DNA of 60,270 nucleotides, filler included. It is 3 parts of 3 records of this genome, joined end to end, with 100 filler letters (N's around TTAATTAATTAA, not from the genome) between each part and the next. Parts side by side here need not be neighbours in the genome. Positions count along the whole stretch, not along the records: positions 1 to 18,351 come from SRR20825019_495; 2 more parts are not named here. One strand, given 5' to 3'. The notes beneath the pieces are model-generated. The model was not told the DNA's origin, did no database searches, and worked only from the letters and a program-made list of their open reading frames with translations. Position 1 is the stretch's first letter; each line of letters starts with the position of its first letter. A program made the translations under genes and the position numbers. Positions 1 to 18,351 of this stretch are shown here, one piece after another.

Positions 1-29
1 TCGAACCAACGACCTACTGATTAAAAGTC
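1..29 (-). tRNA. Partial tRNA-Lys(UUU): 3' half only, probable att-site duplication
   Basis: The reverse complement reads GACTTTTAATCAGTAGGTCGTTGGTTCGA (anticodon loop CTTTTAA, variable loop, T-arm GTTCGA). Similarity stops at the anticodon stem, and the fragment lies directly upstream of an integrase. Confidence 0.8.
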
Positions 30-180
30 GGGTGCTCAGCATTTTTCATGCGGTCGCACGAAATGTCATTCGGTGTCAATTTATGTGGAAAACCCTTCAT
101 ATCCTTGTTTTTAGGGTTTGATTTCACATCGCACGAGGACCTATTGTATCTCAATCGGTGTCAGGGCTTCGCAAATCACT

Positions 181-201
181 TGTCCCCCAAATGTCCCCCA
201 A
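181..201 (+). repeat. Tandem TGTCCCCCAA x2, probable integrase arm-type binding sites
   Basis: Direct repeats at 181-190 and 192-201 between att and the integrase start, as seen next to P4-family integrases. Confidence 0.55.
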
Positions 202-227
202 GGGCAGCACCGCCCAAAGGAGACGCA

Positions 228-1523
228 ATGGCCCAAGCCCTGACAGACGCATTTCTGCGCAAGGTTAAGCCCCCGACCGAGGGGCGAGACGAATATTCGG
301 ACACACTTCGCCAAGGTCTTCGACTGCGGGTTTTGCCCTCTGGGCGGCGGACATGGATGTATGAAAAGCGCATTCGCGGCGGGGCAAAGCGAAAGCACAC
401 GTTGGGAACGTATCCCGGCATGTCGATCAAAGAAGCGCGGGACGTTGCACTTGAGCTTCAACTGGAAGCGGAGCGCGGCATTGACCGGATCCTTGATGCA
501 CAGGAAGCCGAGAAGCAAAGAACGCGCGCACTTGCCGCCCAAAAAACAGTCCGAGAGGTTTTGCAGATCCATGACGAAGTGCATTGCTCAAACCTGAAGA
601 GCGGTAAGGAGCGGATGCGAAGCCTCAATGAGGTGCTTGCGCCACACCTGGATGAACGCCTTGAAGAATTGGACAGGGCAGTCCTGCAGTCCATTGTTGA
701 TCAAAAGGCAAGGTCCGGCGCGCCGGTTCAGGCGAACAGGATTGCCGCATATCTCAGCAAGTTTTCCAAGTTTGCATGGCAGCGCGGATATCAGACAACG
801 CACATCGGCCATGGTTTGGAAAAGCCCTCAAAAGAAGTCCCACGCGACCGAGTGCTGACCTTGGGGGAGATGCAAAAAATTCAACGTGCTTCATTTAAAA
901 TGGGACCTCTCTGGGGACCATTGCTGAGACTGCTCATCGCGACCGCGCAACGGCGGCACCAAATCGGTAATCTCAAATGGCGTGAAATCGACTTCGACGC
1001 ACAACAGATCAACTTCGGAGCAGGCCGCACCAAGAACAACGAGTGGAACCATTTTGTCCACATTCCCAGCTTTTGCATTTTCGAGCTGCGGAGCATGAAG
1101 GACGCCGCCAAAGAACGATGGGGTGCTGAGGGCTTAAGCGACCGCCATATCTTCACGACCACAGGCAACACGCCCCCATCTGGATACTCCAAGTTCAAGC
1201 AAAGGCTGGATAAAACACTTGGCCCAGACATGGAGCATTGGACATTCCATGATCTGAGGACCGGCTTTGCGACCGTCATGTGCGAAGCCGGTGCAGATGA
1301 AATCATCGTTGATCGCATCATGAACCACGCAGCGGTGTCGTCAGCGCCAAGTGCAGTTGCGCGCATCTACAACCGTGCCAAGAACAGCGACTTGCGGCGT
1401 AAAGTCATCGATGATTGGCACGAAGTTCTCAACGAGTTCATCCCTTCGGGGGATATCGTGGCTGTAAAGAGTGCTCTTGGATCTACAAATGCACCAACGA
1501 ATATTTCCCTCGGGAAGCTATGA
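228..1523 (+). CDS. P4-family tyrosine integrase with N-terminal arm-binding (DUF4102-like) domain
   Basis: N-terminus LTDAFLRKVKP..GLRLRV..G.RTW..LGTYP.MS; catalytic R (AQRR), K (RTKN), HDLR, MNH, IYN. RBS GGAG lies before the ATG at 228. Confidence 0.93.
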   Translation: MAQALTDAFLRKVKPPTEGRDEYSDTLRQGLRLRVLPSGRRTWMYEKRIRGGAKRKHTLGTYPGMSIKEARDVALELQLEAERGIDRILDAQEAEKQRTRALAAQKTVREVLQIHDEVHCSNLKSGKERMRSLNEVLAPHLDERLEELDRAVLQSIVDQKARSGAPVQANRIAAYLSKFSKFAWQRGYQTTHIGHGLEKPSKEVPRDRVLTLGEMQKIQRASFKMGPLWGPLLRLLIATAQRRHQIGNLKWREIDFDAQQINFGAGRTKNNEWNHFVHIPSFCIFELRSMKDAAKERWGAEGLSDRHIFTTTGNTPPSGYSKFKQRLDKTLGPDMEHWTFHDLRTGFATVMCEAGADEIIVDRIMNHAAVSSAPSAVARIYNRAKNSDLRRKVIDDWHEVLNEFIPSGDIVAVKSALGSTNAPTNISLGKL

Positions 1524-2315: not shown

Positions 2316-2579
2316 ATGCCCCTCACTGCAGAATTCAACCACACACTTGGCGCTGGCGAAGATGCACCAGTTAGCATGCTCGTGGCAAAAGATCCCCTTA
2401 TACGGGATGCCGATGGCGCTTTCATGATGGGTTGCTCTAAAGCGACCTTCTGGCGGCGCGTTGCGGACGGAACAGTCCCCGCAGCGATCAAAATCGGCGG
2501 GCTGAGCCGCTGGCGATTGAGCGACATTGAAGCAGTCATCAGCAACGCAGAAGGCAAACGCGCCGACTCTGCCGCCTAA
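2316..2579 (+). CDS. alpA: AlpA-family HTH regulator/excisionase
   Basis: LIRDADGAFMMGCSKATFWRRVADGTVPAAIKIGGLSRWRLSDI is a classic AlpA pattern. Confidence 0.88.
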   Translation: MPLTAEFNHTLGAGEDAPVSMLVAKDPLIRDADGAFMMGCSKATFWRRVADGTVPAAIKIGGLSRWRLSDIEAVISNAEGKRADSAA

Positions 2580-2700
2580 AAGAAAACCCCCACCCGCAAG
2601 GCGATGCAGGCAGAGGGCAATTTCTTTTTATGAGTCCGCCAAGACCCATTTAGGATATCCCAAAGCCGCCCGCCTTTCAATCCTGAAAGGAACGCGGACC

Positions 2701-3069
2701 ATGACGAACCATACCAAAACCACCATCCCGACCGACCGCCCACCGGCAAACGCATTGCGCGTCGATAAGTGGAGCGACATGCCGACCGGCACAGCCCCGG
2801 CTCGTTACGAGATCACCGGGGAGGACGGCCAGACCACAACCATCACACTGGCCAAGGGCAATCGCATCATCCTCGACGCACTGATCGAGCGCCCCGTGTA
2901 TTGCGCCAGCCCGGTGCGGATCTCTGACCGGGTCTGCATTCTGCGCCGCGAGTATGGCGTACCGATCACAAAGGAGATGTACTCCAACGACAGCGCAACC
3001 GACCGCGCCAAGTTTGGCGTGTACTTCCTCAACGGTGCGGTGCGCCGGATTGACGGGGGTGCAGCTTGA
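2701..3069 (+). CDS. Hypothetical protein, possible winged-helix DNA-binding protein
   Basis: RBS AAGGA upstream; C-terminal RISDRVCILRREYGVPITKE..FGVYFL resembles a wHTH. Confidence 0.6.
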   Translation: MTNHTKTTIPTDRPPANALRVDKWSDMPTGTAPARYEITGEDGQTTTITLAKGNRIILDALIERPVYCASPVRISDRVCILRREYGVPITKEMYSNDSATDRAKFGVYFLNGAVRRIDGGAA

Positions 3070-3071
3070 TT

Positions 3072-3173
3072 ATGGCCCTCAAAATCCAGATTGCCCGCCT
3101 GCAGCGCCTCTACGGCATGTCCGCCTCCCAAGCCCGCCTCGTCGCTGGCCTGCACTACGGGGAGGCCGTGTGA
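3072..3173 (+). CDS. Small hypothetical protein (33 aa, MALKIQIARLQRLYGMSASQARLVAGLHYGEAV)
   Basis: Fills the gap between flanking ORFs; its stop overlaps the next ATG (TGATG). Absent from the ORF track because it is under 60 aa. Confidence 0.55.
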   Translation: MALKIQIARLQRLYGMSASQARLVAGLHYGEAV

Positions 3174-3388
3174 TGACAGACATCGTCAAGAACAGCCGCG
3201 AGATCATCCGCATCACGCGTGGCGAATTCAAAGGTCACGATATGGTCAACGTCCGCGTCTTCTTTGACGCAGGCGATGGCGAGATGAAACCCGGCAAACA
3301 GGGGGTCGCGTTCCGCGCGGCCCTGCTGCCCGATATGTTGAGCGCCCTGCAGGCCTTTGTAACGGAGGCTCAGCATGACCACCAATAA
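3173..3388 (+). CDS. PC4/YdbC-like (p15) ssDNA-binding protein
   Basis: IVKNSREIIRITRGEFKGHDMVNVRVFF..DGEMKPGKQGVAF matches the PC4 family; RBS GGAGG. Confidence 0.85.
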   Translation: MTDIVKNSREIIRITRGEFKGHDMVNVRVFFDAGDGEMKPGKQGVAFRAALLPDMLSALQAFVTEAQHDHQ

Positions 3389-3740
3389 CCTGATGATTGC
3401 CAACGACTTCGACTGCACCATTGGCACGCAGGACGCGTGGTGGGCGTTGATCCCTGACGTGCTGGCCAACCTCACGCCGTACCAGCGCGGATCGGTGGCG
3501 TTTCTGGCCCTCAAATCGCTGGACACCGACATTGCCGCACAGGTGGCAGAAGCGGCTTTGCAACGGGGCGCAGGCCAGCCCATCGCGCCCTTGTTCAATC
3601 ACATGGATGAGGCTGCGTTCTGGGCAGACATGGCAGAGCCGGAGGAACTGGAGGCATATTGCCTCGCCAGCTTCAAAGCGATGCCGAGCTACCGTCAGTC
3701 CGCCTTCCTCGACTTTGTACAGGGGAGGCAAGCAGCTTGA
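3375..3740 (+). CDS. Hypothetical protein
   Basis: RBS GGAGG; overlaps both neighbours in the operon. Confidence 0.7.
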   Translation: MTTNNLMIANDFDCTIGTQDAWWALIPDVLANLTPYQRGSVAFLALKSLDTDIAAQVAEAALQRGAGQPIAPLFNHMDEAAFWADMAEPEELEAYCLASFKAMPSYRQSAFLDFVQGRQAA

Positions 3741-4918
3741 TGCGTGATTTCATCGTTATGGGCGCACAGTTGGACCTGCACCGGGCCGAACATACGAACG
3801 GCGCAGACCGCCTGCCGACGCCCTTTATCTGGCAGGACCCCAATACCCTGCCCCGCCGCCCGTGGATTTACGGGCGGCACCTGCTGCGCAAACAGGTTGC
3901 TGTCACTGTCGCCCCCGGCGGCGTCGGCAAGTCTTCCCTTACCATCGTGGAGGGGTTGGCAATGGTTTCTGAACGCGAACTGCTGGGAGAATGGACCGCG
4001 AACGGCCTGAATGTCTGGCTCTACAACCTGGAAGATCCGCGCGATGAAATGAACCTGCGTATCACAGCGGCCATGCAGCACTACGATGTGCAGCCCTGTG
4101 AAGTGGAAGGTCGGTTGTTCGTAGATACCGGGCGTGAGCGGGAGCTTTGCACGGCAGTCCAAACCCGCGAGGGCGTCGTTATCGTCAAGCCCGAGATTGA
4201 AGAGCTGGCGCGAGAAATCTGCGAGCGCAAGATAGACGTGGTGATTGTTGACCCATTCGTGTCATCGCACCAAGCGGGCGAAAATGACAACGTCGCAATC
4301 GACCTCATCGCCAAGGAATGGGCGCGTCTGGCGGATCGATGCAACTGCGCAATTGAGTTGGTCCACCACACCCGCAAGACCAATGGTATTGAGGCGACCA
4401 CAGAGGACAGCAGGGGCGGGTCGGCCTTGTTGGCGGCTGCGCGGTCGGGCCGGGTGCTCAATCGCATGACGGCGGACGAGCGGGAACAGGCTGGTCTCCT
4501 GCCCGATGACCTAACCACCTACTTCACGGTCACACGCGACAAGGCAAACCTTGCCCCCATCGGCAAACGGACATGGCGGCGCATGGCAGCGGTGGAACTG
4601 GCAAACGGCGAAAGCGTCGGTGTCGCTGAGGCCTGGGAATGGCCCGATACTTTCGATGGCTTCGACAGCAAGGACCTGCTGGCGGTTCAGAATGCCATTG
4701 AAGGCAAACACCCACGCTTCTCGGATCAGGCAGGCGACGATTGGGCCGGGGTTATCGTAGCCGCCGTCCTGGGGCTGGATGCAACCCACGACAAGCGCCG
4801 GATCAAGAAGATGATCGCGGCATGGCTGCAATCAGGCGCATTGGTGAAAGGCACGAAACTTGGCCCGATCCGCAAGCCAGTCCCAACAATTGAGGTGGGC
4901 GAATGGGCAACCGAATGA
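3740..4918 (+). CDS. AAA_25/RepA-type (RecA-like SF4) replicative helicase
   Basis: Walker A APGGVGKS, NLEDP, Walker B VVIVDP, LVHHTRK, RGGSAL..AAR, DKAN; TGATG overlap at the start. Confidence 0.9.
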   Translation: MRDFIVMGAQLDLHRAEHTNGADRLPTPFIWQDPNTLPRRPWIYGRHLLRKQVAVTVAPGGVGKSSLTIVEGLAMVSERELLGEWTANGLNVWLYNLEDPRDEMNLRITAAMQHYDVQPCEVEGRLFVDTGRERELCTAVQTREGVVIVKPEIEELAREICERKIDVVIVDPFVSSHQAGENDNVAIDLIAKEWARLADRCNCAIELVHHTRKTNGIEATTEDSRGGSALLAAARSGRVLNRMTADEREQAGLLPDDLTTYFTVTRDKANLAPIGKRTWRRMAAVELANGESVGVAEAWEWPDTFDGFDSKDLLAVQNAIEGKHPRFSDQAGDDWAGVIVAAVLGLDATHDKRRIKKMIAAWLQSGALVKGTKLGPIRKPVPTIEVGEWATE

Positions 4919-4920
4919 TG

Positions 4921-5072
4921 TGCGTCACCACCCCAAAAAAGCAGGTCACGCAGGGTGACGCAAACACCCCTGTAAACCACTGCGTCACCACCCCTCCCCC
5001 TAAAGGGGGGGGAGGTGGTGGTGACGCGCTCAGTGGGGCTCCGGAGGTGGTGACGCAAAACGACGTGACGCA
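4921..5072. repeat. Cluster of TGCGTCACC/GGTGACGCA direct and inverted repeats, putative replication origin
   Basis: TGCGTCACCACCCC at 4921 and 4981; inverted copies near 4953, 5015-5028, 5047-5057 and 5064, immediately downstream of the helicase. Confidence 0.65.
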
Positions 5073-5105
5073 GCAGCAAACCGGTTCTCAAGAAAGGCAC
5101 TCACA

Positions 5106-5552
5106 GTGAACAAAAAGAACAACCGAAACAGCGGCTCAAATACGGACGACCGGAATCCCGATGGCACGTTTGCCCCCGGCAATCCCGGCAAGCCCAAAGG
5201 ATCACGCCACAAAGCCACGCAGGCTATCGAGGCGATGCTGGAAGGTCAGCAGGAGGCATTAACGCAGGCTGCGATAGCCAAAGCGCTGGAAGGCGACGTC
5301 ACCGCTCTGCGCCTCTGTCTGGATCGGATCGCACCAGCACGCAAAGACGCGCCGGTATCGTTCGACTTGCCTACCATCGAAACGGCAGAGGACGCCGCCA
5401 ACGCTGCGCGCGCCATTCTCCGGGCGATTGCCGACGGCGAGATAACACCACTCGAAGCGGCAACCGTGATGGGTGTGGTCGAACATTTCCGCCGGACCCT
5501 TGAGACCACCGACATGGAAAAACGCATCACAGCATTGGAGGCACAGAAATGA
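5106..5552 (+). CDS. DUF5681-domain / terminase-small-subunit-like protein
   Basis: RNPDGTFAPGNPGKPKGSRHK...LTQAAIAKALEGDVTALRLCLDRIAP; position matches the TerS slot of satellites. Confidence 0.7.
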   Translation: MNKKNNRNSGSNTDDRNPDGTFAPGNPGKPKGSRHKATQAIEAMLEGQQEALTQAAIAKALEGDVTALRLCLDRIAPARKDAPVSFDLPTIETAEDAANAARAILRAIADGEITPLEAATVMGVVEHFRRTLETTDMEKRITALEAQK

Positions 5553-5839
5553 GCATTGAAACACGATTGAGAAAACTGGAAGGCCAGACAATGGGAGAAG
5601 AAGGCCACAAGCTCGACTTCATTTTCATCATAGGCATCAAGTCGGCGGATACGGCGGGGCACAGCGGAGACCCAACCGCCCCGATGGACATCCGGCCATC
5701 GACCGATGTGCCACAGAACTTCGTTGCATATTGTCTGCATCCTCATTGTGAGGCCCGCGAACATTCCAGCTTGCCCGGCGAAACCGTTGATCAGATGGCA
5801 GCAAGGCTGCGTGCCCAACACCTGGAGGCAGGCGCATGA
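5549..5839 (+). CDS. Hypothetical protein
   Basis: ATGA overlap, RBS GGAGG; N-terminal IETRLRKLEG. Confidence 0.7.
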   Translation: MSIETRLRKLEGQTMGEEGHKLDFIFIIGIKSADTAGHSGDPTAPMDIRPSTDVPQNFVAYCLHPHCEAREHSSLPGETVDQMAARLRAQHLEAGA

Positions 5840-6117
5840 CTTTGAAGCATAGGTTATCAGCTCTCGAAAAGACGCAAGCAGATCCACTTACCGTGTTCGC
5901 ATCGGTTCCTTTGGGGTGGAGCCCGGAACATGCAGAGCGGGAGGTAAAAACTTGCGCCTTGGCTCTCGGCATCCAGTCGCCGTTTTCAACATGCATTATC
6001 CATAAAAAACAAGCCGAGCAGGTCAGTATCGATGGCGTCGAAAGCATGAAGGAGCTGCTTGATTACGTGGCTTTGCATGGACGACGGGTCGGGCAGAAAT
6101 GGGAGCGGCACCCATGA
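5836..6117 (+). CDS. Hypothetical protein
   Basis: ATGA overlap, RBS GGAGG; N-terminal LKHRLSALEK. Confidence 0.7.
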   Translation: MTLKHRLSALEKTQADPLTVFASVPLGWSPEHAEREVKTCALALGIQSPFSTCIIHKKQAEQVSIDGVESMKELLDYVALHGRRVGQKWERHP

Positions 6118-6277
6118 CCTCAGCACCTAACATAAAATGCCGTATTGGCTGTGAGTTCCGTGCATCAAATCCGCAAAATAATGATGGAAACGTCGCGCAT
6201 TTTCCCTTTGTTTTCTTGGTTTTAGCCCCAAAAAATGGTAAGATTGAAAGCAACCGATTTAGGGGGAGGGCAGCGGC

Positions 6278-6403
6278 ATGAATACGGGTTTTCAGAACCT
6301 CACAGACATGTTCAACGGCGGTGGTGGAGGCGGTTCAGGCGCAACATTCCAAGGCGCCGGGCTTTGGTCCGCGATCCTCAACATGGCTGGGGGTAAAAAC
6401 TGA
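6278..6403 (+). CDS. Small Gly-rich protein (41 aa, MNTGFQNLTDMFNGGGGGGSGATFQGAGLWSAILNMAGGKN)
   Basis: RBS GGGGAGG; stop overlaps the ATG of the amidase gene (TGATG). Confidence 0.55.
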   Translation: MNTGFQNLTDMFNGGGGGGSGATFQGAGLWSAILNMAGGKN

Positions 6404-8181
6404 TGGGAATCCTTGACGCATCGGATCCGAATTTCCACTACGGAAAGTCCGCGACAGCACACGCCAAGCCCTTTGAGGGCATTGTTTGGCATCACACGCG
6501 CGAAGCGCCACTGATGAACTTGGTCGACTACGGCAAGCGGGTTGATCCTGAACGGGGCGGCGCTTTCGGATACCACTACTACATCGGCCCTGACGGTCAG
6601 GTGGTGCAAGGCGCGCCAACAGACAAGCGCACCAACCACATCAAGCCAGGATCGCCCACAGGGTTCAGCAACAGCAACGCCATGGGGATTTCACTCGTCG
6701 GGGCGGAACATGGTGCAACCCCTGCACAGCTTGAAGCTGCGAAACGCTTGGGCAAGGAAATTGAAGCCAAATACGGCATCCCGGCGACGAACAATCTGGG
6801 CCATGGTGAAATACAAAACGACCGTCAGCACCACGAAGGCGGAGAGCTTGCAGGTTACATGCGCGGCGATGATATCACCAATGACACCATGCGCGCACTT
6901 GGCAAAACGCCGATGCAGCCTGACCCGCCAAAAGCAACCCCGCGCGGTTCAATGATGGCGGAGTCCACTACCGCTACCCGCCACCCCTCGATCAGTTCCC
7001 GTAGCGGCACAGCGTCGCTTCTTGGCAACATCGGCAATGACTCATTGGAGACAGATATGGCAACCGAGTATCAACCCGAAAAAGCCAGCGGCTTGATGGG
7101 AATGATTTTCCCCAACATGACGGCGGATAGGCAGGACCGGATTGCCTTGGCTCTGCACAGCATGACGATCAACCCGGATGAAGGGTTCCAACGCGCCATT
7201 ATGGGCCGCATGGCGGATCGCCGCGATGACCGGAAAGAGTTCAAAAACCAACAGCGCGCGCAACAGAGAGATAGTAAAACGGCGCAAATGTTGAGGAACA
7301 ACGGCGCGCCGGACTATCTCGTCCAAGCTGCCATGAACGGCTACGGGGCCGAGGCGTTTTCACAATACATGCAACTGAAAGGGCGCAGCCCGGACAAGCC
7401 CACACCTTATTCTGACCAAGCCAAGGTCATGTCGGACCTCCGGAACGGGTTGATCACCCAAGAGCAGGCGAATGCGGCTTTGACTGGTGGTAGCACCGAA
7501 GCGGATCGGGAGATTGCCCGACTGGAGAGCGTAGGCATCCCGCGCAACATCGCAATCAAGATCAAAGAGGGCGTGTACAAAACGACGCAAGATCCGCTGA
7601 CGCGAGAAGTTACCGTCATTGATATTTCAACTGGCCAGCCCGTCTATCAGGCGACGGGAACCCCCACACCCGCACCATCCGAGATCCTGACCCCTGCCCC
7701 AACACCAACCGGTGCAGACGCCAGTGACAGCTTCGGCCTGGAGGGGATGATCAAACGTGCAATCAACAGCGGATCAGACTTCGTAGGCGCTGGCACCCCT
7801 TTCGAGGGTGTCCGTGATACGCAATCAGATTTCGCGGTACTGCGTGAAGGTCTCGTTAACGATATCTCGCAAGGATATGGACGCCAGCCGCCCAGCTGGC
7901 TCATGAAAAACATCCAAGACCTGACGCCATCGGCAGGCGGGATTCAGGGGGCGGAGGATGCGCAATCCAAGCTGGGCGCGCTGCAACGCAGTTTCGCCCA
8001 AGAACTTCAAAGCATTGAGCAGCAAATGCAGGGCCAAATTTCACCTACTCAACGACAGGTTCTGACGGAGCGGGCAGCATCGCTGAATGCAGCTGTCGGA
8101 AAGGTCGATAACGCGCTGAGGAGATTTGGCAACGGCGGAGTCGGCACAACGAAAAGCGGCATCAAGTGGAGTGTTGAATAA
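6403..8181 (+). CDS. Amidase_2 (N-acetylmuramoyl-L-Ala amidase) fused to a podovirus ejection-protein-like helical region
   Basis: IVWHHT...GYHYYIGPDG...NSNAMGISLVG...T.AQ..A...GHGE in the first ~150 aa; the rest is A/Q/G-rich and helical, ending TTKSGIKWSVE. Confidence 0.8.
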   Translation: MGILDASDPNFHYGKSATAHAKPFEGIVWHHTREAPLMNLVDYGKRVDPERGGAFGYHYYIGPDGQVVQGAPTDKRTNHIKPGSPTGFSNSNAMGISLVGAEHGATPAQLEAAKRLGKEIEAKYGIPATNNLGHGEIQNDRQHHEGGELAGYMRGDDITNDTMRALGKTPMQPDPPKATPRGSMMAESTTATRHPSISSRSGTASLLGNIGNDSLETDMATEYQPEKASGLMGMIFPNMTADRQDRIALALHSMTINPDEGFQRAIMGRMADRRDDRKEFKNQQRAQQRDSKTAQMLRNNGAPDYLVQAAMNGYGAEAFSQYMQLKGRSPDKPTPYSDQAKVMSDLRNGLITQEQANAALTGGSTEADREIARLESVGIPRNIAIKIKEGVYKTTQDPLTREVTVIDISTGQPVYQATGTPTPAPSEILTPAPTPTGADASDSFGLEGMIKRAINSGSDFVGAGTPFEGVRDTQSDFAVLREGLVNDISQGYGRQPPSWLMKNIQDLTPSAGGIQGAEDAQSKLGALQRSFAQELQSIEQQMQGQISPTQRQVLTERAASLNAAVGKVDNALRRFGNGGVGTTKSGIKWSVE

Positions 8182-10721
8182 TGGCGACCCTGACAATTGA
8201 AGGCAAAAAGGTAACGGTAGACGACAGCTTTCTAAGCCTGTCACCGGAACAACAGGAGGCAACGGTCGAGGAAATCGCGGGATCAATGGGCCTCGCCGAT
8301 CAGTCCGGTTTCATGGGCCATCTGAATCAAGGCATTGCAAATGCAGCAGGCGGTATCGTTGATCTGATAAACCCCTTTGATCAACCGCACGCCCTGAACC
8401 CGTTTAGCCAGGGAACAGGGTCCGCAGTCACCGGCTTGGAGAGAGGCATGGATGCTATCGGTGTGAACCGCGCCACATCCGAACCGGATACCTTCGCGGA
8501 AAATCTGGCAAGGGGTGCGGGCGAAGCGGCTGGCGCAGCACCATTCGGGGGAGTGGCAGCGAAAGCGCTGTCCGGTGCGGGTGGCATCATCGGCGGGATT
8601 GCAGACGACGCATCAACAGCCATGAACAGCGCGCGCGGCTTTGTGTCGGAAATGTTCGCAGGCGCAGGCGCGCAGGGTGGTCAGTCCCTTGCCGAAGATG
8701 CTGGCGCACCGGAATGGATGCAGACGACCGCAGGCATTCTAGGCGGCGCGGGCGTCGGGGCAATTCCCGGCGCAGTACGTAAAACTCCCAGCGCAATCGG
8801 AGCGCGCAAACTGACTGGCGCTGTGAAAACAGCCATGCTGCCCTACACCAAAGCAGGCGGCAAAGAAGTTGCCCGCCAACGTGTGCAGGAGCTGGCAGGT
8901 GGCGCGGATCGGGCCGAACAATTGGCCCGAGAAATCGGCCCTTCCGAAATCGGTCTTAGCCCAGCCCAGCAAACAGGCGATCCAAACCTTTTGGGACTTG
9001 AACAAGAAGCCATGCGACGGAACCCGAAGCTGCGGGCCGCAATGGATGCACGCGCAGAAGCTGGCCAGCAGACTGCTGCCGACCGCCTGCGCGGTATGGG
9101 CGGTGATCCAGCTGAAGCGCAGTCATTCTTTGAACAACGCCGCGCTGACTTCCGTGTCGCAATCAATGGCCTTGTGGATCGCGCTACGGCTGGAGCTTTG
9201 CGCCCGACCGCCAAAAACAGCGAGATGATCAACAGCCAAGAGGTTGCCGACAAGATCAGGGCCGCACAGAGCGCCGCAAAGGCGCAAGAGGGGGCTTTGT
9301 GGGCACGTGTGCCCAAAGGAACGCAGGTAGGCACTACACGGGCGCGACAGGCGGCGCAGGAACTGATTGCAGACACGCCCCGCGCACAGCGCGAAGATAT
9401 CCCCCGCGTCGTGCAAGAACTCCTTGGCCCGGACAGCAACAGCGCCTTCGGTGAATTTGAGACTGTTTCGGAAATGCACGGCCTTTACAGCAAACTGCGC
9501 GAGACCGCCCGCGCCGCCCGCAGCGGCACCAATCAGCAGCGCAACTTAGCCCGCATTTCTGACAACGTCGCAGATGCGATCCTTGAAGACTTGGGCGCAG
9601 GTGCAGGGCAATCGAATGTCGGCCGCACGATTGACGAAGCCCGCGCGTTTTCTGCGGAAATGCACCAAACGTTCGACCAGGGCGTTATTGGCAAGCTGCT
9701 GCGGCAAAGCACCGATGGGGACAGGGCCATTGATCCGGCGCTAACGTTGGACCGCACCGTGGGGCGAGGTGGGTCGCAAGGCGCAGTGGGCGCTGACAGC
9801 ATCCGTGCGGCCACAGGATCGAGCGCAGACCTGCAGATGGAAGACTTTTTGCAGGGGCGTTTCAATCGCGCCGCCTTTGGTCCTGATGGGCAGTTCAATG
9901 TCCGTGGCGGCCTTACCTTCATGCGCGATAACGCAGACATGATCGGTCGCTTCCCTTACCTGCAGGAGACCTTTAACGAAGCGCTGCGCACCCAGACGCG
10001 TGCATTCAACACCACGGCCCGGGCTGAAAGAGCCTTGACCAACATGGACAGCCCGTCAAAATCACCTACGGCGGCATTTACACAAGCCCCTGCGGAGACG
10101 GCAATTGATGCGGTATTCAAGGCGAAAAGGCCCTCGGTCGAGGCGCGTCAACTTGCGGCCACTGCCCGCAAAGACACGTCTGGGAAGGCTATGGACGGCC
10201 TTAAAGGTTCTTTTTCTGATTACGTGATCCGCAGCAGCACCGACGCCAGCGGATTGAGCGGGGATGCTATGCTCCGATTTTTGGCCAAGCCCGAGAACGC
10301 CGCAACCCTGCGCACCGTGTTATCTGATGGTGATATCGGCAGAATGCGGATGATCGGCGCGGAATTGAAAAAGCTTCGGACTGGGCGCAAGGCAGCGCCG
10401 GACATTGGCGGGTTGTCACCACGATCCCCAAATCGCGTGATCGAATACGCTGCACGCATTATCGCGGCAAATCAAGGGGCCAAGGCCGGAAGCGGCGGGG
10501 CATCCCTTCAAACCGCTCAAATGGCGTCGGGCCGCATGAAAGCGCTTCTGGGCAACCTGCAGAATGACAAAGCCGAGCAGATGCTGATTGATGCGGTATC
10601 AGATCCCGAACTATTCCGGTTGCTCTTGATCGACCCCGGCAAGGTCACTTTGAAACCCCAGCAGATCAACCGACTTGCACCATATTTTGCAGGCGCGGGT
10701 GCGGCAATGGGAGCCGAATAA
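8181..10721 (+). CDS. Large Ala/Gly-rich protein resembling podovirus internal virion/DNA ejection proteins
   Basis: 846 aa with no Cys; N-terminal MATLTIEGKKVTVDDSFLSLSPEQQEATVEEI, Gly/Ala-rich amphipathic segments, LSPAQQTGDP motif; coupled to the upstream gene. Confidence 0.65.
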   Translation: MATLTIEGKKVTVDDSFLSLSPEQQEATVEEIAGSMGLADQSGFMGHLNQGIANAAGGIVDLINPFDQPHALNPFSQGTGSAVTGLERGMDAIGVNRATSEPDTFAENLARGAGEAAGAAPFGGVAAKALSGAGGIIGGIADDASTAMNSARGFVSEMFAGAGAQGGQSLAEDAGAPEWMQTTAGILGGAGVGAIPGAVRKTPSAIGARKLTGAVKTAMLPYTKAGGKEVARQRVQELAGGADRAEQLAREIGPSEIGLSPAQQTGDPNLLGLEQEAMRRNPKLRAAMDARAEAGQQTAADRLRGMGGDPAEAQSFFEQRRADFRVAINGLVDRATAGALRPTAKNSEMINSQEVADKIRAAQSAAKAQEGALWARVPKGTQVGTTRARQAAQELIADTPRAQREDIPRVVQELLGPDSNSAFGEFETVSEMHGLYSKLRETARAARSGTNQQRNLARISDNVADAILEDLGAGAGQSNVGRTIDEARAFSAEMHQTFDQGVIGKLLRQSTDGDRAIDPALTLDRTVGRGGSQGAVGADSIRAATGSSADLQMEDFLQGRFNRAAFGPDGQFNVRGGLTFMRDNADMIGRFPYLQETFNEALRTQTRAFNTTARAERALTNMDSPSKSPTAAFTQAPAETAIDAVFKAKRPSVEARQLAATARKDTSGKAMDGLKGSFSDYVIRSSTDASGLSGDAMLRFLAKPENAATLRTVLSDGDIGRMRMIGAELKKLRTGRKAAPDIGGLSPRSPNRVIEYAARIIAANQGAKAGSGGASLQTAQMASGRMKALLGNLQNDKAEQMLIDAVSDPELFRLLLIDPGKVTLKPQQINRLAPYFAGAGAAMGAE

Positions 10722-11062
10722 TGCAGTGGTCCTCTGACACATTCACGCTTGAGGATGCCCGTGGCGTGCTTGCCCTCTTTGCGCCTGACAAGGTGACAGA
10801 GGACCGATGCAAAAGGCTCTGTAATTACCTTGAGGAAATACCGCCGCCTCATACCGTCGATGCCTACGTGAACTATTTCGAGCAGATCACACCAGCGGCG
10901 ATACGTGCGCAGGAAACGGGCCACGTGGATGCGGAGCTTTGGCTCTATGCTCTATCGGTGCGCGCCTTGTCATACGAGGTCGAGCAGGAATTTCACGGGC
11001 CGATGAAGCAACTAATTTGCGGCGACCCGCCAGATCAGCGCCCTGCGCAATCCACAGCATAG
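10721..11062 (+). CDS. Hypothetical protein
   Basis: TAATG overlap with the upstream gene. Confidence 0.6.
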   Translation: MQWSSDTFTLEDARGVLALFAPDKVTEDRCKRLCNYLEEIPPPHTVDAYVNYFEQITPAAIRAQETGHVDAELWLYALSVRALSYEVEQEFHGPMKQLICGDPPDQRPAQSTA

Positions 11063-11119
11063 GACCGGGGGCCGATTTTGTGACACACGGCAGTGACAAA
11101 TAAAATAGGGGCCGACAAT

Positions 11120-11384
11120 CTCGCCAAGCGCAAAGAGGCGTATATCGTGCTGCACCCTGAAACGGCGAAGACCGGGCCGCGCCCTGATGGTTGTGGCCAA
11201 GTTGGCCATAATACATTCGCAGACGACCAAGCATCTAAAACAGGGCAGGGAAGGTAAGGGTTTAGGCGTTGCAAGAGACAACGCCCAAATTGCTACCGCT
11301 GCCGACATTGGCTTGCGCCGTGACGAGATACACGACGCCCGAAAGCTGCGCGATGCGGAGCGTGACATCCAAACGCAGCTTTGA
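11120..11384 (+). pseudogene. Fragments of phage-type genes
   Basis: LAKRKEAYIVLHPETAKTG and TAADIGLRRDEIHDARKLRDAER are short phage-protein-like motifs in different frames with no intact ORF. Confidence 0.4.
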
Positions 11385-11473
11385 AACAAGGGGAGGACAT
11401 TTATGCCTGCCGTTGGTGGGCCGGGGTGTGGGGCTTTCCGCACCTTCCAACGAGGGCAGCACAGTGACCAAAA

Positions 11474-11872
11474 ATGATCGATAACGGAGACACGCCACCA
11501 CGTCGCAAGCCCCAGATCATCGCAGCGCCCAAGCCTCGGCGGGTCTACTGGTGTGAGTTTCCACGGGATGCCTTGCTGCCTGAATTCTGGAAAACCCGCC
11601 CTGTGGTGATCCTATCGCCCCGCGCAAATCTTCACGGGGTGGTGACTGTTGTGCCTCTGTCGACCAAAGCCCAACCTGATAACAAGCTGGCCCATGCCTT
11701 CGCATCTGTGCTGCCTGATGGGGGTACATCGTGGGCAATTTGCAGCCATGTGACGACGCTGTCCGTTGCCCGCCTATCGCTTGTGAATGGAAAGGCGCCG
11801 ACCATTCCAGAGGATGATTTCACAGAAATTCTTAGGATTGTGCGTTCACAAATCCCGACGCCCCGCGCGTAG
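11474..11872 (+). CDS. PemK/MazF-family endoribonuclease toxin (no protein antitoxin adjacent)
   Basis: PKPRRVYWCEF...PEFWKTRPVVILS...VTVVPLST...SWAICSHVTTLSVARL. Confidence 0.88.
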   Translation: MIDNGDTPPRRKPQIIAAPKPRRVYWCEFPRDALLPEFWKTRPVVILSPRANLHGVVTVVPLSTKAQPDNKLAHAFASVLPDGGTSWAICSHVTTLSVARLSLVNGKAPTIPEDDFTEILRIVRSQIPTPRA

Positions 11873-11877
11873 AAATC

Positions 11878-11998
11878 TTGACTTTCGGGTCATGGGTGCC
11901 TACCTGTGACTGCATATGCGGCCCCTAACGGGTGTCCGTCGCCCCGCAAGGGGAGATAGCTGCAAGGGTGTCGGGAAACCGCGCCCTTGTTTCTTTTT
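11878..11998 (+). ncRNA. Candidate small structured RNA with its own promoter and terminator
   Basis: TTGACT-N17-TACCTG, hairpins CCC-TAAC-GGG and CCCC-GCAA-GGGG, then stem CAAGGGTG..GAAA..CGCCCTTG with a T-rich tail. Confidence 0.5.
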
Positions 11999-12074
11999 CA
12001 GGGCTATCTCAAAGCGATCAGCCACCATCCCTCATTCCCAGACAGACAACCGAAAAGATAAAGATCACCCATCT

Positions 12075-12145
12075 GGGGTTTCGAAAGGGGGCAGAGCGCC
12101 CCTTCGCCGGAGAGACATAACAGCCCGCCAGGGAGGTTATGGCTA
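12075..12145 (+). promoter_or_regulatory. Putative oriT for the MOB_V relaxase
   Basis: Inverted repeats AAGGGGGC..GCCCCTT (~12085-12104) and CATAAC..CCC-GCCA-GGG..GTTATG (12116-12141) just upstream of the relaxase. Confidence 0.5.
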
Positions 12146-12230
12146 GTAGGTTCCCGCATGCGCGATCCGATACGGCAGGCCAATCAGTTTTGGTAAACCG
12201 ATTTTCACAGTCTTCCCGTATCTTGTCTGC

Positions 12231-13400
12231 ATGGAAGAAAAGAGCTTCGCCATTTCAGTCAGGATCGAGCACCGTTCGATGGGCCGCGCACAGTCTGCGC
12301 GCTACCATGATCTGCGTCTTGGCCACATTCCGGGATATGTAGATCAGGAACGGATTGCCGAGAATTCCACAATCTTGGAACCGGCAATGCCCTCAGCACT
12401 GCGGCGGATCTGTCTGACCCATCGCGCCAATCGCCCAACACAGCGTGCCATGAAAAAGGATGCCGCTGTCGCAAGCTGCTTCATCATCACCTTCGGGAAG
12501 GCTGCGCAGCCAATCTTCGAAGCCCTGCCCAAAGCCCAGCAGGATGCCGCATATGAAGCTGTGGCCAAGGCCGTGGCATCCCTTCTGGGGTCTGAGGTGA
12601 CAGGCCTTGTCGCGCACAGAGATGAGACCGCGCCACATGCTCACGGGCAGATGCCTGCCGTTCGCCTGGATGGTCGCCCTCTGTCAAAGGTGTTGACGCC
12701 ACGCATGGCAAAGCAAGTGCAGGACGTTGCAGCCGAGGCCATCGCACAATTCGCGCCGCAGATTGTCCGGGGTAAGCCCAAGGCTCAGCGAATTGCAGAT
12801 GGTGAGCCACTCTCTAAAACTGTCCATCGCTCTGTGCGACAACTGCACAACGACCTACCCACCGAGATCAGCACAAAGGCGGCTGAAGTCGAAAAGCTGC
12901 AAGGCCGGATCGAGAAGATGCGCGCCAAGGAAAAGCTGACCGAGGCAAATGCGAGAACACTGGTCACCTATGAAAGGCGATTGGCTGAGAAAGCAGCTCA
13001 GTTGAGAGAAAAACAGCGGGCTTTTGCCGCAAGCACGCGCGCCATTCAAACCCAACAAAAAGCCCGTGAAAGCGCCATTGCTGAACGTGAAGCGGCGGTA
13101 GTCGTGCGAGAACAGGAAGTCACAGCTCAGGTCGAGGGCATCAAAGCTGCTGTGGAGGCCGTAAAAGCGGGGACGGTCACGCGGGGGGAAGATGGCAGAC
13201 CTGTGGTGACAGATGCCACACATGCTGCAGTCCTGCGGCCCGTGTGGCGGTCTCTTGGACCTCTCGTCATGACCCTTGCAGATATGCGTGCCGAATTGGC
13301 CACCAGCCTACAGCGCTTCCGTGACCTGTTCCGCCGCAACGAACTGCAGCCTGAAATCATTGAAGACGGCAGGGACCTGTTAGACGGGATGGATCCATAA
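12231..13400 (+). CDS. MOB_V (Mob_Pre) relaxase / plasmid recombination protein
   Basis: HDLR motif, VDQERIAENSTI, HRDETAPHAH (HxDExxPHxH), C-terminal coiled coil. Confidence 0.88.
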   Translation: MEEKSFAISVRIEHRSMGRAQSARYHDLRLGHIPGYVDQERIAENSTILEPAMPSALRRICLTHRANRPTQRAMKKDAAVASCFIITFGKAAQPIFEALPKAQQDAAYEAVAKAVASLLGSEVTGLVAHRDETAPHAHGQMPAVRLDGRPLSKVLTPRMAKQVQDVAAEAIAQFAPQIVRGKPKAQRIADGEPLSKTVHRSVRQLHNDLPTEISTKAAEVEKLQGRIEKMRAKEKLTEANARTLVTYERRLAEKAAQLREKQRAFAASTRAIQTQQKARESAIAEREAAVVVREQEVTAQVEGIKAAVEAVKAGTVTRGEDGRPVVTDATHAAVLRPVWRSLGPLVMTLADMRAELATSLQRFRDLFRRNELQPEIIEDGRDLLDGMDP

Positions 13401-13510
13401 CGCCCATCGTCGCTGAGAGTTTGTAAGGCTGTTCTGTGGGAACTGGATCGGATCAATTCGGCCAACACCATGAAATATGCCGGATGCTGGCCGAATGAAC
13501 GAAATGCAAG

Positions 13511-13837: not shown

Positions 13838-13968
13838 ATTAACGACTCCAGATTTGTATATTTGGAACCGTTAACGATTTTGGGTCAGAGTAAAACACGA
13901 AAGCGTGAACAAGGATGAACTTTTTCAACTCCAAGAGCACTGCTGCTCGGCGCTCTATCTATCGAAAC

Positions 13969-14467: not shown

Positions 14468-14494
14468 GAAATCTCCTGTAAAAATTATGCCAAT

Positions 14495-14575: not shown

Positions 14576-15193
14576 ATGACAACCGCAGCCACATTCAACC
14601 GCACCGCCATTATGACCCACGCATGGGAAATCGTCCGCCGTGCCAATGTCGCACTCTACGGATTGCGCACGATCCTGCGCCGCGCCTTGCGGGCCGCTTG
14701 GAGTGAGGCCAAGCACAAGCTGGCAATCGGGCAAGTCGAACAGCAGGCGCAGGCCCACAGCCCCGAAGTTGCCCGCACACGTGAAGCCATTGCCGCGCTC
14801 GAAGGCAAGGACCGCTGGACGCAGGCCGACTATGCCCGCATCGGCGTTCTGCGCGCTGCACTTCGCGCCGCCGAAGACCACGAAGCAGCAGCGCCCGATT
14901 ATGCTGAAAAGCGCGGCCTGATCGCCGCAGCCGGTGGCCGCTTCTGCGCAGTCACCTTCACCAAGGCAGACGGTACCGAGCGCACCATGCAGGTGCAGCC
15001 AGCGACGTTGCAGCACCACCTCAAGGGGGACGACGCCACAGAGGCCGGAAAACGGGCCACACAGACGCGCAAAGCCCGCCACCCTCACCTGCTGCCCGTC
15101 TGGGACGCGAAGGCCCGAGCGCCCCGCTCCGTCAATCTGGCGACCATTTCACGGATCGCCGTTCATGGGGTTGTCCACGAATACCGTGCATGA
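14576..15193 (+). CDS. Phage protein with a C-terminal SH3/Sm-like (WYL_2/DUF2693-like) domain
   Basis: N-terminal AIMTHAWEI..ALRAAWSEAK; C-terminal FCAVTFTKADGTERTM...VWD....RSVNLATI. Confidence 0.65.
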   Translation: MTTAATFNRTAIMTHAWEIVRRANVALYGLRTILRRALRAAWSEAKHKLAIGQVEQQAQAHSPEVARTREAIAALEGKDRWTQADYARIGVLRAALRAAEDHEAAAPDYAEKRGLIAAAGGRFCAVTFTKADGTERTMQVQPATLQHHLKGDDATEAGKRATQTRKARHPHLLPVWDAKARAPRSVNLATISRIAVHGVVHEYRA

Positions 15194-16186: not shown

Positions 16187-16198
16187 AGCCACCTCTCG

Positions 16199-16253: not shown

Positions 16254-16769
16254 ATGAATTGTTACACCCACAATAGGAATTGGTCCGACAGGTTCTTACC
16301 TGAAATCAAGCAATTGATCGGGGGCTATCTGTTGGAGACCGCCCCCGATCCTGCTGACCATTTCCAAGCCACGGACCTGATGATGCTGGACGCCCGCGAT
16401 ATGCGGGTTGCAGCACGTGTGCGGCGTCCTGGCTATGCGCAGCGGTATCCCCATCAGTTTACAATCCGTTCAGCGGTCTCATCAGGAGCGCAGACGGAGC
16501 TTTCCAAGATTGTTAACGGCAACGGCGACTGGATGTTCTACGGCCACTCAAATGCGGCACAGACAGGCTTGGAGGCGTGGTCACTGATCGACCTGCGGGC
16601 GTTCCGGGCAGGGCTGATCCGGCACCGCGCCAATACTCCCAGCATCGTCATGGGCGATCAACGGAACGCGGACGGCACGCGGTTCAAGTGGTTCGATATG
16701 AGGTCATTTCCTGCGGATCCGCCCTTGGTGGTGGCATGCTCAGAACAGGCTGGGACGAAAGTCACTTAA
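16254..16769 (+). CDS. Phage hypothetical protein, possible PD-(D/E)XK-like nuclease fold
   Basis: D...ATDL...RVAARVR...FTIRS...TELSKI...DWMFYG pattern. Confidence 0.55.
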   Translation: MNCYTHNRNWSDRFLPEIKQLIGGYLLETAPDPADHFQATDLMMLDARDMRVAARVRRPGYAQRYPHQFTIRSAVSSGAQTELSKIVNGNGDWMFYGHSNAAQTGLEAWSLIDLRAFRAGLIRHRANTPSIVMGDQRNADGTRFKWFDMRSFPADPPLVVACSEQAGTKVT

Positions 16770-17563: not shown

Positions 17564-18019
17564 ATGGCTGATACAATTGACAAATCCAGCCTCTCAACGA
17601 GGCCACCAACCGATATTGAGATTGAAAGCGCATCTGAGGCAGCGGTTGCACTCGCCGGTGCGATAGAAGCCGATGGAGGGCTGAAAGTTGGCGGCGCGAA
17701 CGGCAAGCTGCTGAGCATCGCCCCTGCCATTGGTCAGCTTTTGGCCGAGTTGCTCGGACACGTGGCAAAAGGCGAAATGGTTACTCTGGTACCAACAGGC
17801 ACGCTGCTCACAACCCAGGAAGCCGCTGACATTTTGAATGTGTCACGGCCATTTCTGATCAAGCTGCTAAAGCGCGGTGAGATTGACCACGTTATGGTCG
17901 GGACGCACCGGAAAATTCCACTTGGAAATTTGCTGCATTACAAGTCGGAGATGGACAGCAGGCAGAAGCGAGCTTTGAAAAAAATAGCTAGTCTTGGCCA
18001 AGAGTACGACGCTTCGTGA
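17564..18019 (+). CDS. Excisionase-family (HTH_17) DNA-binding antitoxin
   Basis: LLTTQEAADILNVSRPFLIKLLKRGEI...VGTHRKI; RBS AGGAG. Confidence 0.88.
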   Translation: MADTIDKSSLSTRPPTDIEIESASEAAVALAGAIEADGGLKVGGANGKLLSIAPAIGQLLAELLGHVAKGEMVTLVPTGTLLTTQEAADILNVSRPFLIKLLKRGEIDHVMVGTHRKIPLGNLLHYKSEMDSRQKRALKKIASLGQEYDAS

Positions 18020-18351
18020 GTCACATCGCGAACCCATTTGTTGTAATTCTTGACGCAAACGTCCTGTACCCCTTCAGAGTGCGGGATGTTTTGCTCCACT
18101 TTGCCCATGCGGGGCTATTTCGCGCACGATGGACCGACAAGATAATGAGCGAGTGGACGTCCAATCTTATCGCCAACAAGCCTGCGCTCGAAGCAAGTGT
18201 CCGAGCGCAGGTAGACGCAATACGCGAGAATTTCGAGGAGTGCTGGGTGGATGGATACAGCAGCATCGAAAGTGTGCTTGTCCTACCGGATGAGGATGAC
18301 CGCCACGTCCTCGCCGCTGCAATTGCGCATTTCGCGGAAGTTGGGCAGTGA
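18016..18351 (+). CDS. PIN-domain toxin (PIN_3/VapC50-like), apparently C-terminally truncated
   Basis: VILDANVLYP...RD.LL...W...I..EW...LPDEDDRHVLAAAI; stops at the contig end after 111 aa. Confidence 0.85.
   Translation: MSHIANPFVVILDANVLYPFRVRDVLLHFAHAGLFRARWTDKIMSEWTSNLIANKPALEASVRAQVDAIRENFEECWVDGYSSIESVLVLPDEDDRHVLAAAIAHFAEVGQ

Follow-up and report, generated by a model that had tools for sequence, protein, structure and literature searches.

A mobile, capsid-less island carrying genes for two internal-virion proteins, out of the three that local podoviruses have, was, close to certainly, identified in the stretch of DNA analyzed here (the window; 60,270 nucleotides). The window is composed of three contigs (positions 1-18351, 18452-41324, and 41425-60270), joined at 18352-18451 and 41325-41424 by runs of N around a TTAATTAATTAA spacer. 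The finding is confined to contig 1, which is one real contig and comprises all but a small part of a mobile island that resembles phage satellites and is integrated at a tRNA-Lys gene. The evidence consists of the homology of two adjacent genes to phage genes, the phage order of these genes, the completeness of relatives that likewise lack a capsid, attachment (att) sites, and exchange of the genes with phages. The island probably parasitizes phages and provides components for DNA delivery itself. The balance of the evidence leans slightly toward a podovirus satellite whose own genes provide the medium and large core proteins, for which we infer dependence on a helper phage, packaging of the island DNA, and incorporation of both proteins into virions.

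The two proteins, of 592 and 846 amino acids (the medium and the large protein), were supported by sequence comparison as homologues of podovirus internal-virion (ejection-type) proteins, as had been proposed in an earlier note on this DNA. A tblastn search against 50,697 phage records matched four of them, and the only long match was to the Paracoccus podovirus vB_PmaP_KLEP18-1 (OM654376). Residues 4-831 of the large protein aligned with KLEP18-1 gp21, a "structural protein", at 35% identity (E = 9e-100), and residues 362-591 of the medium protein aligned with residues 356-594 of gp20 at 36% identity (E = 1e-37). The KLEP18-1 proteins gp19, gp20, and gp21 (275, 596, and 876 amino acids) are encoded downstream of the adaptor and nozzle genes, ahead of the tail fibers; gp19 matched the PHROG "DNA ejection protein" (E = 5.5e-20), and gp20 contained an endolysin-type PHROG domain (E = 1.5e-37). 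The island thus resembles KLEP18-1 and related IMG/VR podoviruses in having homologous medium and large genes in the same order and coupling, with the muralytic domain on the medium protein, whereas it differs from them in having a DUF5681 gene and in lacking the virion module and the third, "DNA ejection" protein.

The proteins gp14, gp15, and gp16 of T7 and gp7, gp20, and gp16 of P22 are ejection proteins, and we take the position and size series of KLEP18-1 gp19-21 to match these internal core/ejection proteins. The T7 internal proteins share with gp19-21 the slot between nozzle and fibers, the small-medium-large series, the muralytic domain, and the helical character. The link to T7 and P22 is one of synteny, because neither a sequence nor a fold match to solved structures was obtained.

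The phage context of the homologues was further examined in IMG/VR, where a scan with a single protein found nothing and an alignment-based scan with a profile of island-type sequences gave 20 loci. Among 116 open reading frames (ORFs) of eight of these loci, virion-gene matches in PHROGs surrounded the homologue in every case. Scaffold, major head, portal, nozzle-type, or virion-structural proteins were found in seven, while the eighth (L034), classified by IMG/VR as a 94%-complete provirus, had tail-fiber-type matches only. In six of the eight, a "DNA ejection" or virion-structural protein (phrog_598, 4287, or 6121) was encoded upstream of the medium and large genes. Two further loci, L043 and L049, had tblastn matches to the major capsid protein and other virion proteins of KLEP18-1, and L043 was colinear with that phage. 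The remaining ten loci were outside the PHROG scan, and five of them gave just weak portal or nozzle matches by tblastn. The earlier note had left it open whether a podovirus or a gene transfer agent provides the shell; every phage homologue examined sits in a podovirus-type module, which leaves the gene transfer agent without support.

An AlphaFold2 model of the large protein (53-sequence alignment, mean pLDDT 76) was essentially all-helical, with a Gly/Ala-rich, low-confidence stretch at residues 124-216; the whole protein is 16.7% Ala and 11.6% Gly. A structure search of BFVD returned 61 matches at E <= 0.001 (best E = 3.3e-14, TM score 0.51), and among the matches listed all were large tailed-phage proteins, some of them with lytic transglycosylase, SleB, or M15 domains. 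The expected resemblance to solved podovirus ejection proteins, in contrast, was not recovered: phmmer against PDB found nothing relevant, the best Foldseek match to PDB had an E of 0.056, and the best VIA-align Z of 6.5 was within the helical background. A complex prediction for residues 1-765 of the large and 362-592 of the medium protein, with the alignments unused, scored 0.07 against a mark of 0.34, a value that speaks neither for nor against an interaction. The large protein belongs to an extensive family, with 3173 representatives at 50% identity found at E <= 0.001 and 1109 at E <= 1e-30 in a profile search.

The muralytic domain was swapped among medium homologues, being Amidase_2 in the window, Peptidase_M15_4 in a relative described below (L004), and of endolysin type (PHROGs) in phages; precomputed Pfam assignments for 19 homologues included Hydrolase_2 in four and Amidase_2 in one. 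The large protein has two alternative N-terminal types, each found in islands and in phages. Its first ~40 residues (TLxIEGxxVxV..FLSLSPEQQEATVEEIA) also matched alone, at 63-74% identity, in Rhizobium phages, for example RHph_N3_2 (MN988526.1, positions 11381-11503), and in alphaproteobacterial plasmids of Aureimonas, Microvirga, and Rhizobium. One of the Rhizobium phage genes with this match is annotated as "putative injection protein", and the pattern suggests that the N-terminus is a portable module.

No capsid, portal, terminase, or tail match was found on contig 1 in scans of 27 ORFs against Pfam, the same 27 against PHROGs, and 30 against NCBIfam, in agreement with the earlier observation that 18 kb contained no such gene. 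Eight further elements with the pair were collected: one from a Sulfitobacter genome (L001), one from a Pseudomonadota metagenome-assembled genome (L004), five from a search of 401 genomes of the family of the Sulfitobacter genome, and one plasmid. The family search gave a match in eight genomes, six of them with full-length homologues, one being the genome of L001. Four of the eight elements are att-bounded tRNA islands, three are additional chromosomal islands, and one is the plasmid. In an all-against-all BLAST, the large protein and the C-terminal domain of the medium protein were present in all nine elements, including the window's (the L004 medium copy being identified by tblastn), and a related integrase was present in eight of nine, the plasmid having another recombinase.

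The four att-bounded islands were 21.9 kb (G128, 53-bp repeat, tRNA-Lys), 22.5 kb (G107, 16 bp, tRNA-Met), 16.9 kb (G317, 18 bp, tRNA-Arg), and 19.9 kb (G225, 14 bp, tRNA-Arg) in length. In each, one copy of the direct repeat was beside the integrase and the other in the 3' end of the tRNA gene at the far end. Among 133 ORFs of at least 75 amino acids from these four and a fifth island (G062), no PHROG match to head/packaging, connector, or tail proteins was found; the matches obtained were integrases, excisionase-type regulators, primase-helicases, methyltransferases, one endolysin-like protein, and regulators. Similarly, 132 ORFs of the right arms and flanks of the same five islands gave no virion family in Pfam, only cargo or host genes such as a DNA methylase with an Mrr-type nuclease, HipA-like, RadC, SRAP, SocA, H-NS, and GmrSD. 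In L004, recognizable chromosomal genes (FhuF, ABC transporter) start some 1 kb past the large gene, and neither an att repeat nor a tRNA was found.

The plasmid, a circle of 17,856 bp in Roseivivax marinus, carries the pair together with ParA, helix-turn-helix (HTH) regulators, PC4, and a 1219-amino-acid toprim primase, and contained no virion genes in its RefSeq annotation or in a Pfam scan of 11 ORFs. P4 can also live as a plasmid, as the Roseivivax copy does. Because the att-bounded relatives and the plasmid carry the pair without virion genes, capsid, portal, and large terminase genes are not hiding past the end of contig 1. An ordinary prophage with its virion genes beyond the contig was therefore ruled out, and the homologues were not confined to complete prophages, as the pair occurs in eight further elements without virion genes. 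No capsid, tail, terminase, or lysis module of their own was found in the window's island, the five islands, and the plasmid, and four relatives of 16.9-22.5 kb, together with the integrase and the attL at 1-37 of the window, are as expected of an integrative satellite of about 10-25 kb.

Several observations were made alongside this survey. Going by its source name, the R. marinus assembly that contains the plasmid (L007, NZ_CP090157.1) also encodes a chromosomal large protein (P0026) that is 97% identical to the plasmid copy, so that a single strain seems to have an integrated and an episomal element related to each other. The Sulfitobacter genome of L001 has, about 3 kb downstream of the full-length gene, a 109-amino-acid ORF (L010, G046:C1:717419-717613) that matched only the last 65 profile positions of the large protein and looks like a leftover of an earlier cassette. 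A 986-amino-acid protein of G250 (L028 16857-19817, L029 3982-9759) was distantly similar to the large protein in the C-terminal part of the latter (E = 2.8e-12); it is encoded next to an Abi-type gene and a DNA invertase, in another island that has an integrase, an AlpA-like regulator, and a helicase but no virion genes.

The ends of contig 1 were compared with those of the relatives. Positions 1-37 resemble the 53-bp tRNA-Lys repeat of G128, and in sequencing run X3 a contig tracks the window to position 37 and continues with 14 letters that are the reverse complement of a tRNA D-arm. Contig 1 thus starts inside the integrase-side att site, because 1-37 is part of a tRNA-Lys and the X3 contig continues into the D-arm. 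The right end is an assembly-graph branch rather than an att site, with a second contig of 3969 nt converging on its last 30 letters. The window's own attR lies beyond the contig end, and by analogy with G128, where the gene of the type encoding the window's 171-amino-acid product ends 1.6 kb before the tRNA, little is missing. No direct repeat joining both ends was found, so contig 1 as assembled is not a closed circle.

A maximum-likelihood tree was constructed from 22 large proteins, nine from islands and 13 from phages or IMG/VR, excluding the near-duplicates L036, L039, and L046; for five of the 13 phage rows, the phage context was established by tblastn only. Island and phage labels were interleaved, with at least six changes forced by well-supported branches, a number also reached in 118-127 of 500 label shuffles. 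The island G317 was sister to the phage L044 (SH-aLRT 99), and a 2546-nt part of their large genes was 68% identical at the DNA level. Wherever islands and phages were convincingly similar in DNA, the similarity was inside the two genes; one other match, of 33 nt, was probably due to chance. The interleaved labels and the sister relationship of G317 and L044 indicate that the cassette moved repeatedly between podoviruses and islands.

If the two genes were what remains of a podovirus prophage next to an integrase island of unrelated origin, their phage origin would be explained, as would the extra C-terminal fragment of the large gene, 109 amino acids long and 3 kb downstream, in G046. However, both genes are full length and free of stops in all nine elements across 35-67% identity, and the terminal branches of the islands (0.18-0.64) are no longer than those of the phages (0.011-0.88), which argues against decaying remnants. 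The layout of integrase, replication genes, medium and large genes, cargo, and tRNA also recurs in eight chromosomal elements whose replication modules and att sites are not the same, no other virion remnants were observed, and the pair is on a plasmid as well. Decay of this kind is thus very improbable and was largely refuted by the survey of relatives.

The interleaving would also be expected of an island that must track particular phages in order to interfere with them. The island's versions of the medium and large proteins, produced either all the time or upon infection, would then poison the cores of progeny phage or block incoming ejectosomes at the envelope, and they would represent a device of defense or superinfection exclusion instead of transfer parts. 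The right arms of the islands are indeed rich in defense and toxin-antitoxin cargo (restriction-modification, HipA-like, SocA, GmrSD, MazF, and PIN). However, PADLOC identified nothing for the cassette, its only match among 23 ORFs being a marginal JetC assignment to the relaxase candidate. A full-length muralytic domain and a protein of about 850 amino acids have been kept, which is more than a decoy would seem to need. Mobility is indicated by the intact integrase, the att sites, the replication module, and the occurrence on a plasmid. Interference was considered unlikely; it is compatible with a satellite.

Movement by conjugation or another route, as an integrative mobilizable element or a small plasmid, was considered less likely still, and quite improbable. 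The phage-derived proteins would in that case have been co-opted, for example for local opening of the cell wall. The MobV/Mob_Pre-type relaxase candidate of the right arm scores above its Pfam cut-off (Table 1), and the plasmid version with ParA exists. Nevertheless, the candidate is present in the window's copy only, among nine elements, and is below the NCBIfam MobV cut-off, so that the window's element does not classify as MOBV-mobilizable. PLSDB types the Roseivivax plasmid as non-mobilizable, no conjugation genes were found among the ORFs scanned against Pfam and PHROGs, and the repeated recent exchange of both genes with podoviruses would lack an obvious reason.

Under the favored interpretation, a podovirus satellite, the growth of a related podovirus in the cell would lead the island to excise and replicate, and its DNA would be packed into heads made by the helper. 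The island's medium and large proteins would be built into the internal core, replacing those of the helper or beside them. At the next cell, these proteins would leave the particle before anything else, cleave the peptidoglycan, and contribute to the channel that the island DNA uses. A benefit to the island may lie in entry that is independent of helper-specific steps, or in interference with the helper.

A number of results weigh against this interpretation. No helper phage is known, and a resident helper prophage of this type was not found, as the six family genomes with full-length homologues and G047 each contained only one full-length copy. The third, small "DNA ejection" protein was not found by PHROGs in the window or the five islands. 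With 17-22.5 kb, the islands reach roughly half the length of the candidate helper genomes (39.1 kb for KLEP18-1, and 39.3 and 42.2 kb for IMG/VR records judged complete), and no capsid-resizing gene was recognizable in them. No packaging determinant was identified, the only candidate being DUF5681, which was itself absent from KLEP18-1 and from four IMG/VR phage records (three of them at least 90% complete; positive control G047). Similarly, no cos-like non-coding sequence was common to the islands and the phage stretches compared. No joint across the island was present in the contigs of runs X1-X4, where assembled contigs cannot show excision or circles. The relaxase candidate represents a different transfer route in the window's copy. 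Finally, the term "structural protein" for KLEP18-1 gp20 and gp21 is the label of the depositors, and a paper on this phage was not found in the literature searched.

The two genes belong to a tightly coupled run (5106-11062) in which every start overlaps the previous stop by 1-19 nt. The run is composed of a DUF5681 gene (148 amino acids) and ORFs of 96, 93, 60, 41, 592, 846, and 113 amino acids. The coordinates and coupling of the 41-, 592-, and 846-amino-acid ORFs stood as described in the earlier note, which had regarded the first of these (6278-6403, 29% Gly) as the small member of an ejection trio. No counterpart of the 41- or 60-amino-acid ORF was present upstream of the medium gene in the eight other elements inspected, so the 41-amino-acid ORF could not be confirmed as a gene. 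Its role as the small member was not supported, as it is not conserved and the islands are without the small "DNA ejection" protein of the phages.

DUF5681 had been suggested to be similar to a small terminase subunit (TerS). However, the protein had no TerS family match in Pfam, PHROGs, or NCBIfam and no similarity to the TerS of KLEP18-1, and a fold search found no match with a low-confidence model (pLDDT 63), leaving the assignment unsupported. The satellite with its own ejectosome, as originally conceived, was upheld in the homology of the two large proteins and in the capsid-less relatives, but not in the 41-amino-acid small member, the TerS, or the gene transfer agent shell. DUF5681 homologues of 56-66% identity adjoin the pair in four islands: in L004 and G062 they precede it, whereas in G107 and G128 they come directly after the large gene. 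Judging from sequence searches, DUF5681 is very widespread and conserved in Sulfitobacter: 1941 proteins among 2063 candidates matched at E <= 0.001, and the best 120 were all at least 74% identical. A DUF5681 protein was detected by mass spectrometry in the virion of a Salmonella siphovirus, according to the available text of the report (PMC8954984).

The sole DUF5681 match in the phage collection, at 58% identity, was in the virome scaffold MT836812.1, upstream of tail tube, tail completion, and tape-measure genes. On this unverified 8.7-kb scaffold (L032), the DUF5681 gene is followed within 450-6038 by six small ORFs and then the tail genes, with no capsid gene between them. The arrangement may be the counterpart of the same cassette slot in a long-tailed phage.

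Phage satellites steal capsids, resize capsids, or redirect packaging. P4, phage-inducible chromosomal islands (PICI, including the Staphylococcus aureus pathogenicity islands, SaPI), capsid-forming PICI (cf-PICI), PICI-like elements (PLE), phage-inducible chromosomal minimalist islands (PICMI), and virion-encapsidated integrative mobile elements (VEIMEs) resemble the window's island as small integrative elements with an integrase, an AlpA-like regulator, and their own replication. They differ in that, where characterized, they carry capsid-size, capsid, or packaging functions. No satellite described with ejection proteins and none from the Rhodobacteraceae was found in the literature searched; the supplementary datasets of the VEIMEs, which were outside the search, may bear on this point. 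The available text on marine VEIMEs mentions no ejection proteins (Eppley et al., 2022; PMC9618062).

The idea of a satellite with ejection proteins nevertheless proved less new than had been assumed, as an analogous cassette is present in a verified satellite, EcCIMP1, a phage-inducible chromosomal island of E. coli MP1. In the available text of its report, EcCIMP1 is described as excising only upon induction of the podovirus vB_EcoP_Kapi1, as being transduced at low frequency, as lacking capsid and terminase genes, and as adding to superinfection immunity (PMC11773190). The same text describes genes downstream of the primase that resemble "DNA transfer proteins" and proteins of Kapi1, and regards them as candidates for a role in packaging rather than in ejection (Pick, Stadel & Raivio, ISME J 2025, PMC11773190). 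In RefSeq, the locus reads DUF2824, hypothetical, "phage DNA ejection protein" (439 amino acids), and "lytic transglycosylase domain-containing protein" (906 amino acids).

Like EcCIMP1, the window's island is adjacent to a tRNA, encodes a tyrosine integrase, an AlpA-type regulator, and its own primase/helicase, and lacks capsid, terminase, and lysis genes. In both, the replication gene is followed by a coupled operon of one or more small leaders and then medium and large podovirus-related proteins with a muralytic domain. In contrast, the cassettes showed no similarity by tblastn, and only the integrase and AlpA matched weakly. The muralytic domain is on the medium protein here and on the large protein (about 900 amino acids) in EcCIMP1, the leader is DUF5681 here and DUF2824 there, and the hosts are marine Alphaproteobacteria and E. 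coli, respectively. Mobilization by a helper was demonstrated for EcCIMP1 and is putative for the present island, which has only two of the phage's three proteins. What is new relative to EcCIMP1 is thus the host class, a cassette without detectable similarity, the presence of two of three proteins, the DUF5681 leader, and the plasmid form.

A tentative generalization, more doubtful than the satellite interpretation itself, is that podovirus satellites form a broad class, unrecognized in print, with a swappable "DNA-delivery cassette" behind a small leader (DUF5681 or DUF2824). Medium and large core proteins freshly borrowed from whatever podovirus is being exploited would then take the place of the helper's and control the exit of DNA from the hijacked head. 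Such a class could enter cells without helper-specific steps or sabotage the virions of its helpers, and the DUF5681 gene before the tail tube and tape-measure genes of MT836812 would be a long-tailed-phage version of the slot. Should the island's proteins enter helper virions, they would constitute a new point of parasite control over the virus particle and help explain the EcCIMP1 genes; should they instead act against phages, by blocking or poisoning them, this would amount to a novel form of defense that uses copies of the phage's own entry machinery. The family offers a tractable case, in cultivable marine bacteria of the Roseobacter group, of satellites that may tailor DNA injection. At present, the genes are labeled "hypothetical" by annotation pipelines, and islands of this kind would be scored as incomplete by satellite finders.

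The features of contig 1 are listed in Table 1. The predicted core of integrase, AlpA, single-stranded DNA-binding protein, helicase, and origin was present, with PC4 as the binding protein and a weak AlpA assignment; the TerS-like label at its end was not supported. The integrase groups with those of seven of the eight other elements in the all-against-all BLAST. An AlpA-type regulator and replication of its own with an origin are represented by this weak assignment and by the AAA_25 helicase, PC4, and the iterons. The iteron cluster is a candidate replication origin or protein-binding site, as suggested by its place after the helicase gene. Replication modules varied among the elements (AAA_25, DnaB, D5_N/DUF5906, or toprim). 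In the right arm, the terminal HTH-PIN pair is probably a toxin-antitoxin system, and several ORFs in the rest of the contig are without a family assignment.

Table 1. Features of the island on contig 1 of the window, in order of position.
Feature	Position	Strand	Evidence
attL core	1..37	(-)	Reverse complement of the 3' part of tRNA-Lys(UUU), anticodon loop CTTTTAA; read from sequence
Tyrosine integrase, P4-type arm-binding and catalytic domains	48..1523	+	PF13356 E 5.4e-16, PF00589 E 1.8e-15; phrog_1 E 3.3e-51
AlpA-like HTH regulator/excisionase candidate	2316..2579	+	HTH_17 20.7 bits (below Pfam cut-off of 27); phrog_66 excisionase/regulator E 5.3e-6
Conserved backbone ORF, start uncertain, overlaps neighbors	2527..3069	+	tblastn 43-45% identity in G062, G107, G225
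PC4/p15-type single-stranded DNA-binding protein	2954..3388	+	PF02229 E 1.3e-11; PC4 also on Roseivivax plasmid
Replicative helicase, AAA_25, RepA/primase-helicase type	3659..4918	+	PF13481 E 1.8e-38; phrog_906 E 1.9e-38
Iteron cluster	4921..5072	.	Several GTGACGCA/TGCGTCAC copies, both orientations, in the 190-nt spacer after the helicase gene
DUF5681 protein	5106..5552	+	PF18932 35.8 bits
96-aa ORF, unverified	5549..5839	+	ORF only; no family match, no homologue in other islands
93-aa ORF	5836..6117	+	tblastn 30-32% identity in G128, G107, G062, each time downstream of the DUF5681 gene
60-aa and 41-aa (Gly-rich) ORFs, unverified	6099..6403	+	ORFs only
Medium internal-virion-type protein, 592 aa	6403..8181	+	Amidase_2 at 22-138 (PF01510 E 3.7e-17) and conserved C-terminal domain at ~362-592
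Large internal-virion-type protein, 846 aa, helical, Ala/Gly-rich	8181..10721	+	Full-length homologue of KLEP18-1 gp21
113-aa ORF coupled to large gene	10721..11062	+	ORF only; no homologue in other islands
MazF/PemK-type toxin	11474..11872	+	PF02452 E 4.1e-13; MazF common to plasmid
MobV-type relaxase candidate	12231..13400	+	PF01076 30.9 bits (cut-off 25.5); NCBIfam MobV 31.5 bits (cut-off 100)
205-aa ORF, right-arm backbone	14576..15193	+	36-49% identity in G062, G107
171-aa ORF, right-arm backbone	16254..16769	+	61-67% identity in G107, G062, G225, G128, each near the tRNA end
HTH (excisionase-family DNA-binding domain) and PIN pair	17564..18351	+	PF12728 E 2.7e-10, PIN_3; NCBIfam RSP_2648-family PIN E 8.6e-26

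The three contigs had G+C contents of 0.566 (1-18351), 0.524 (18452-41324), and 0.501 (41425-60270). The closest named relative of the proteins of contig 1 was Pseudosulfitobacter pseudonitzschiae, with a match of 98% identity over 81% of the large protein. A search in the family of genome G001, the nearest genome compared (27% of sampled words) but kin of another contig of the window and not of the island, gave no match in 45 genomes. The island was contained in runs X1-X3, which come from one study and bear three organism labels, at 99-100% of the sampled words. Its word depth was about 600-fold in X3 against about 21-22 in X1 and X2, values that are not copy numbers, as the host depth was not given. 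A long "skip" from 7042 to 11336 in contigs of the runs was discarded, as it rests on matches of 24-27 letters to a high-depth contig.

On the third contig, the ORFs at 46237-47970 and 52678-54495 matched eukaryote-type families (MEX67/NXF NTF2-like domain and leucine-rich repeats), and a 1359-amino-acid ORF (55169-59248) had a weak Fringe-like match. These similarities suggest that the third contig is of eukaryotic origin and that the assembly is mixed. The second contig includes a metal-resistance region (18452-35000) that begins with a truncated fragment of an AcrB/CusA-type pump and also encodes HlyD and OEP partners, a cation-efflux protein, a P-type ATPase with an HMA domain, a multicopper oxidase, and CopB.

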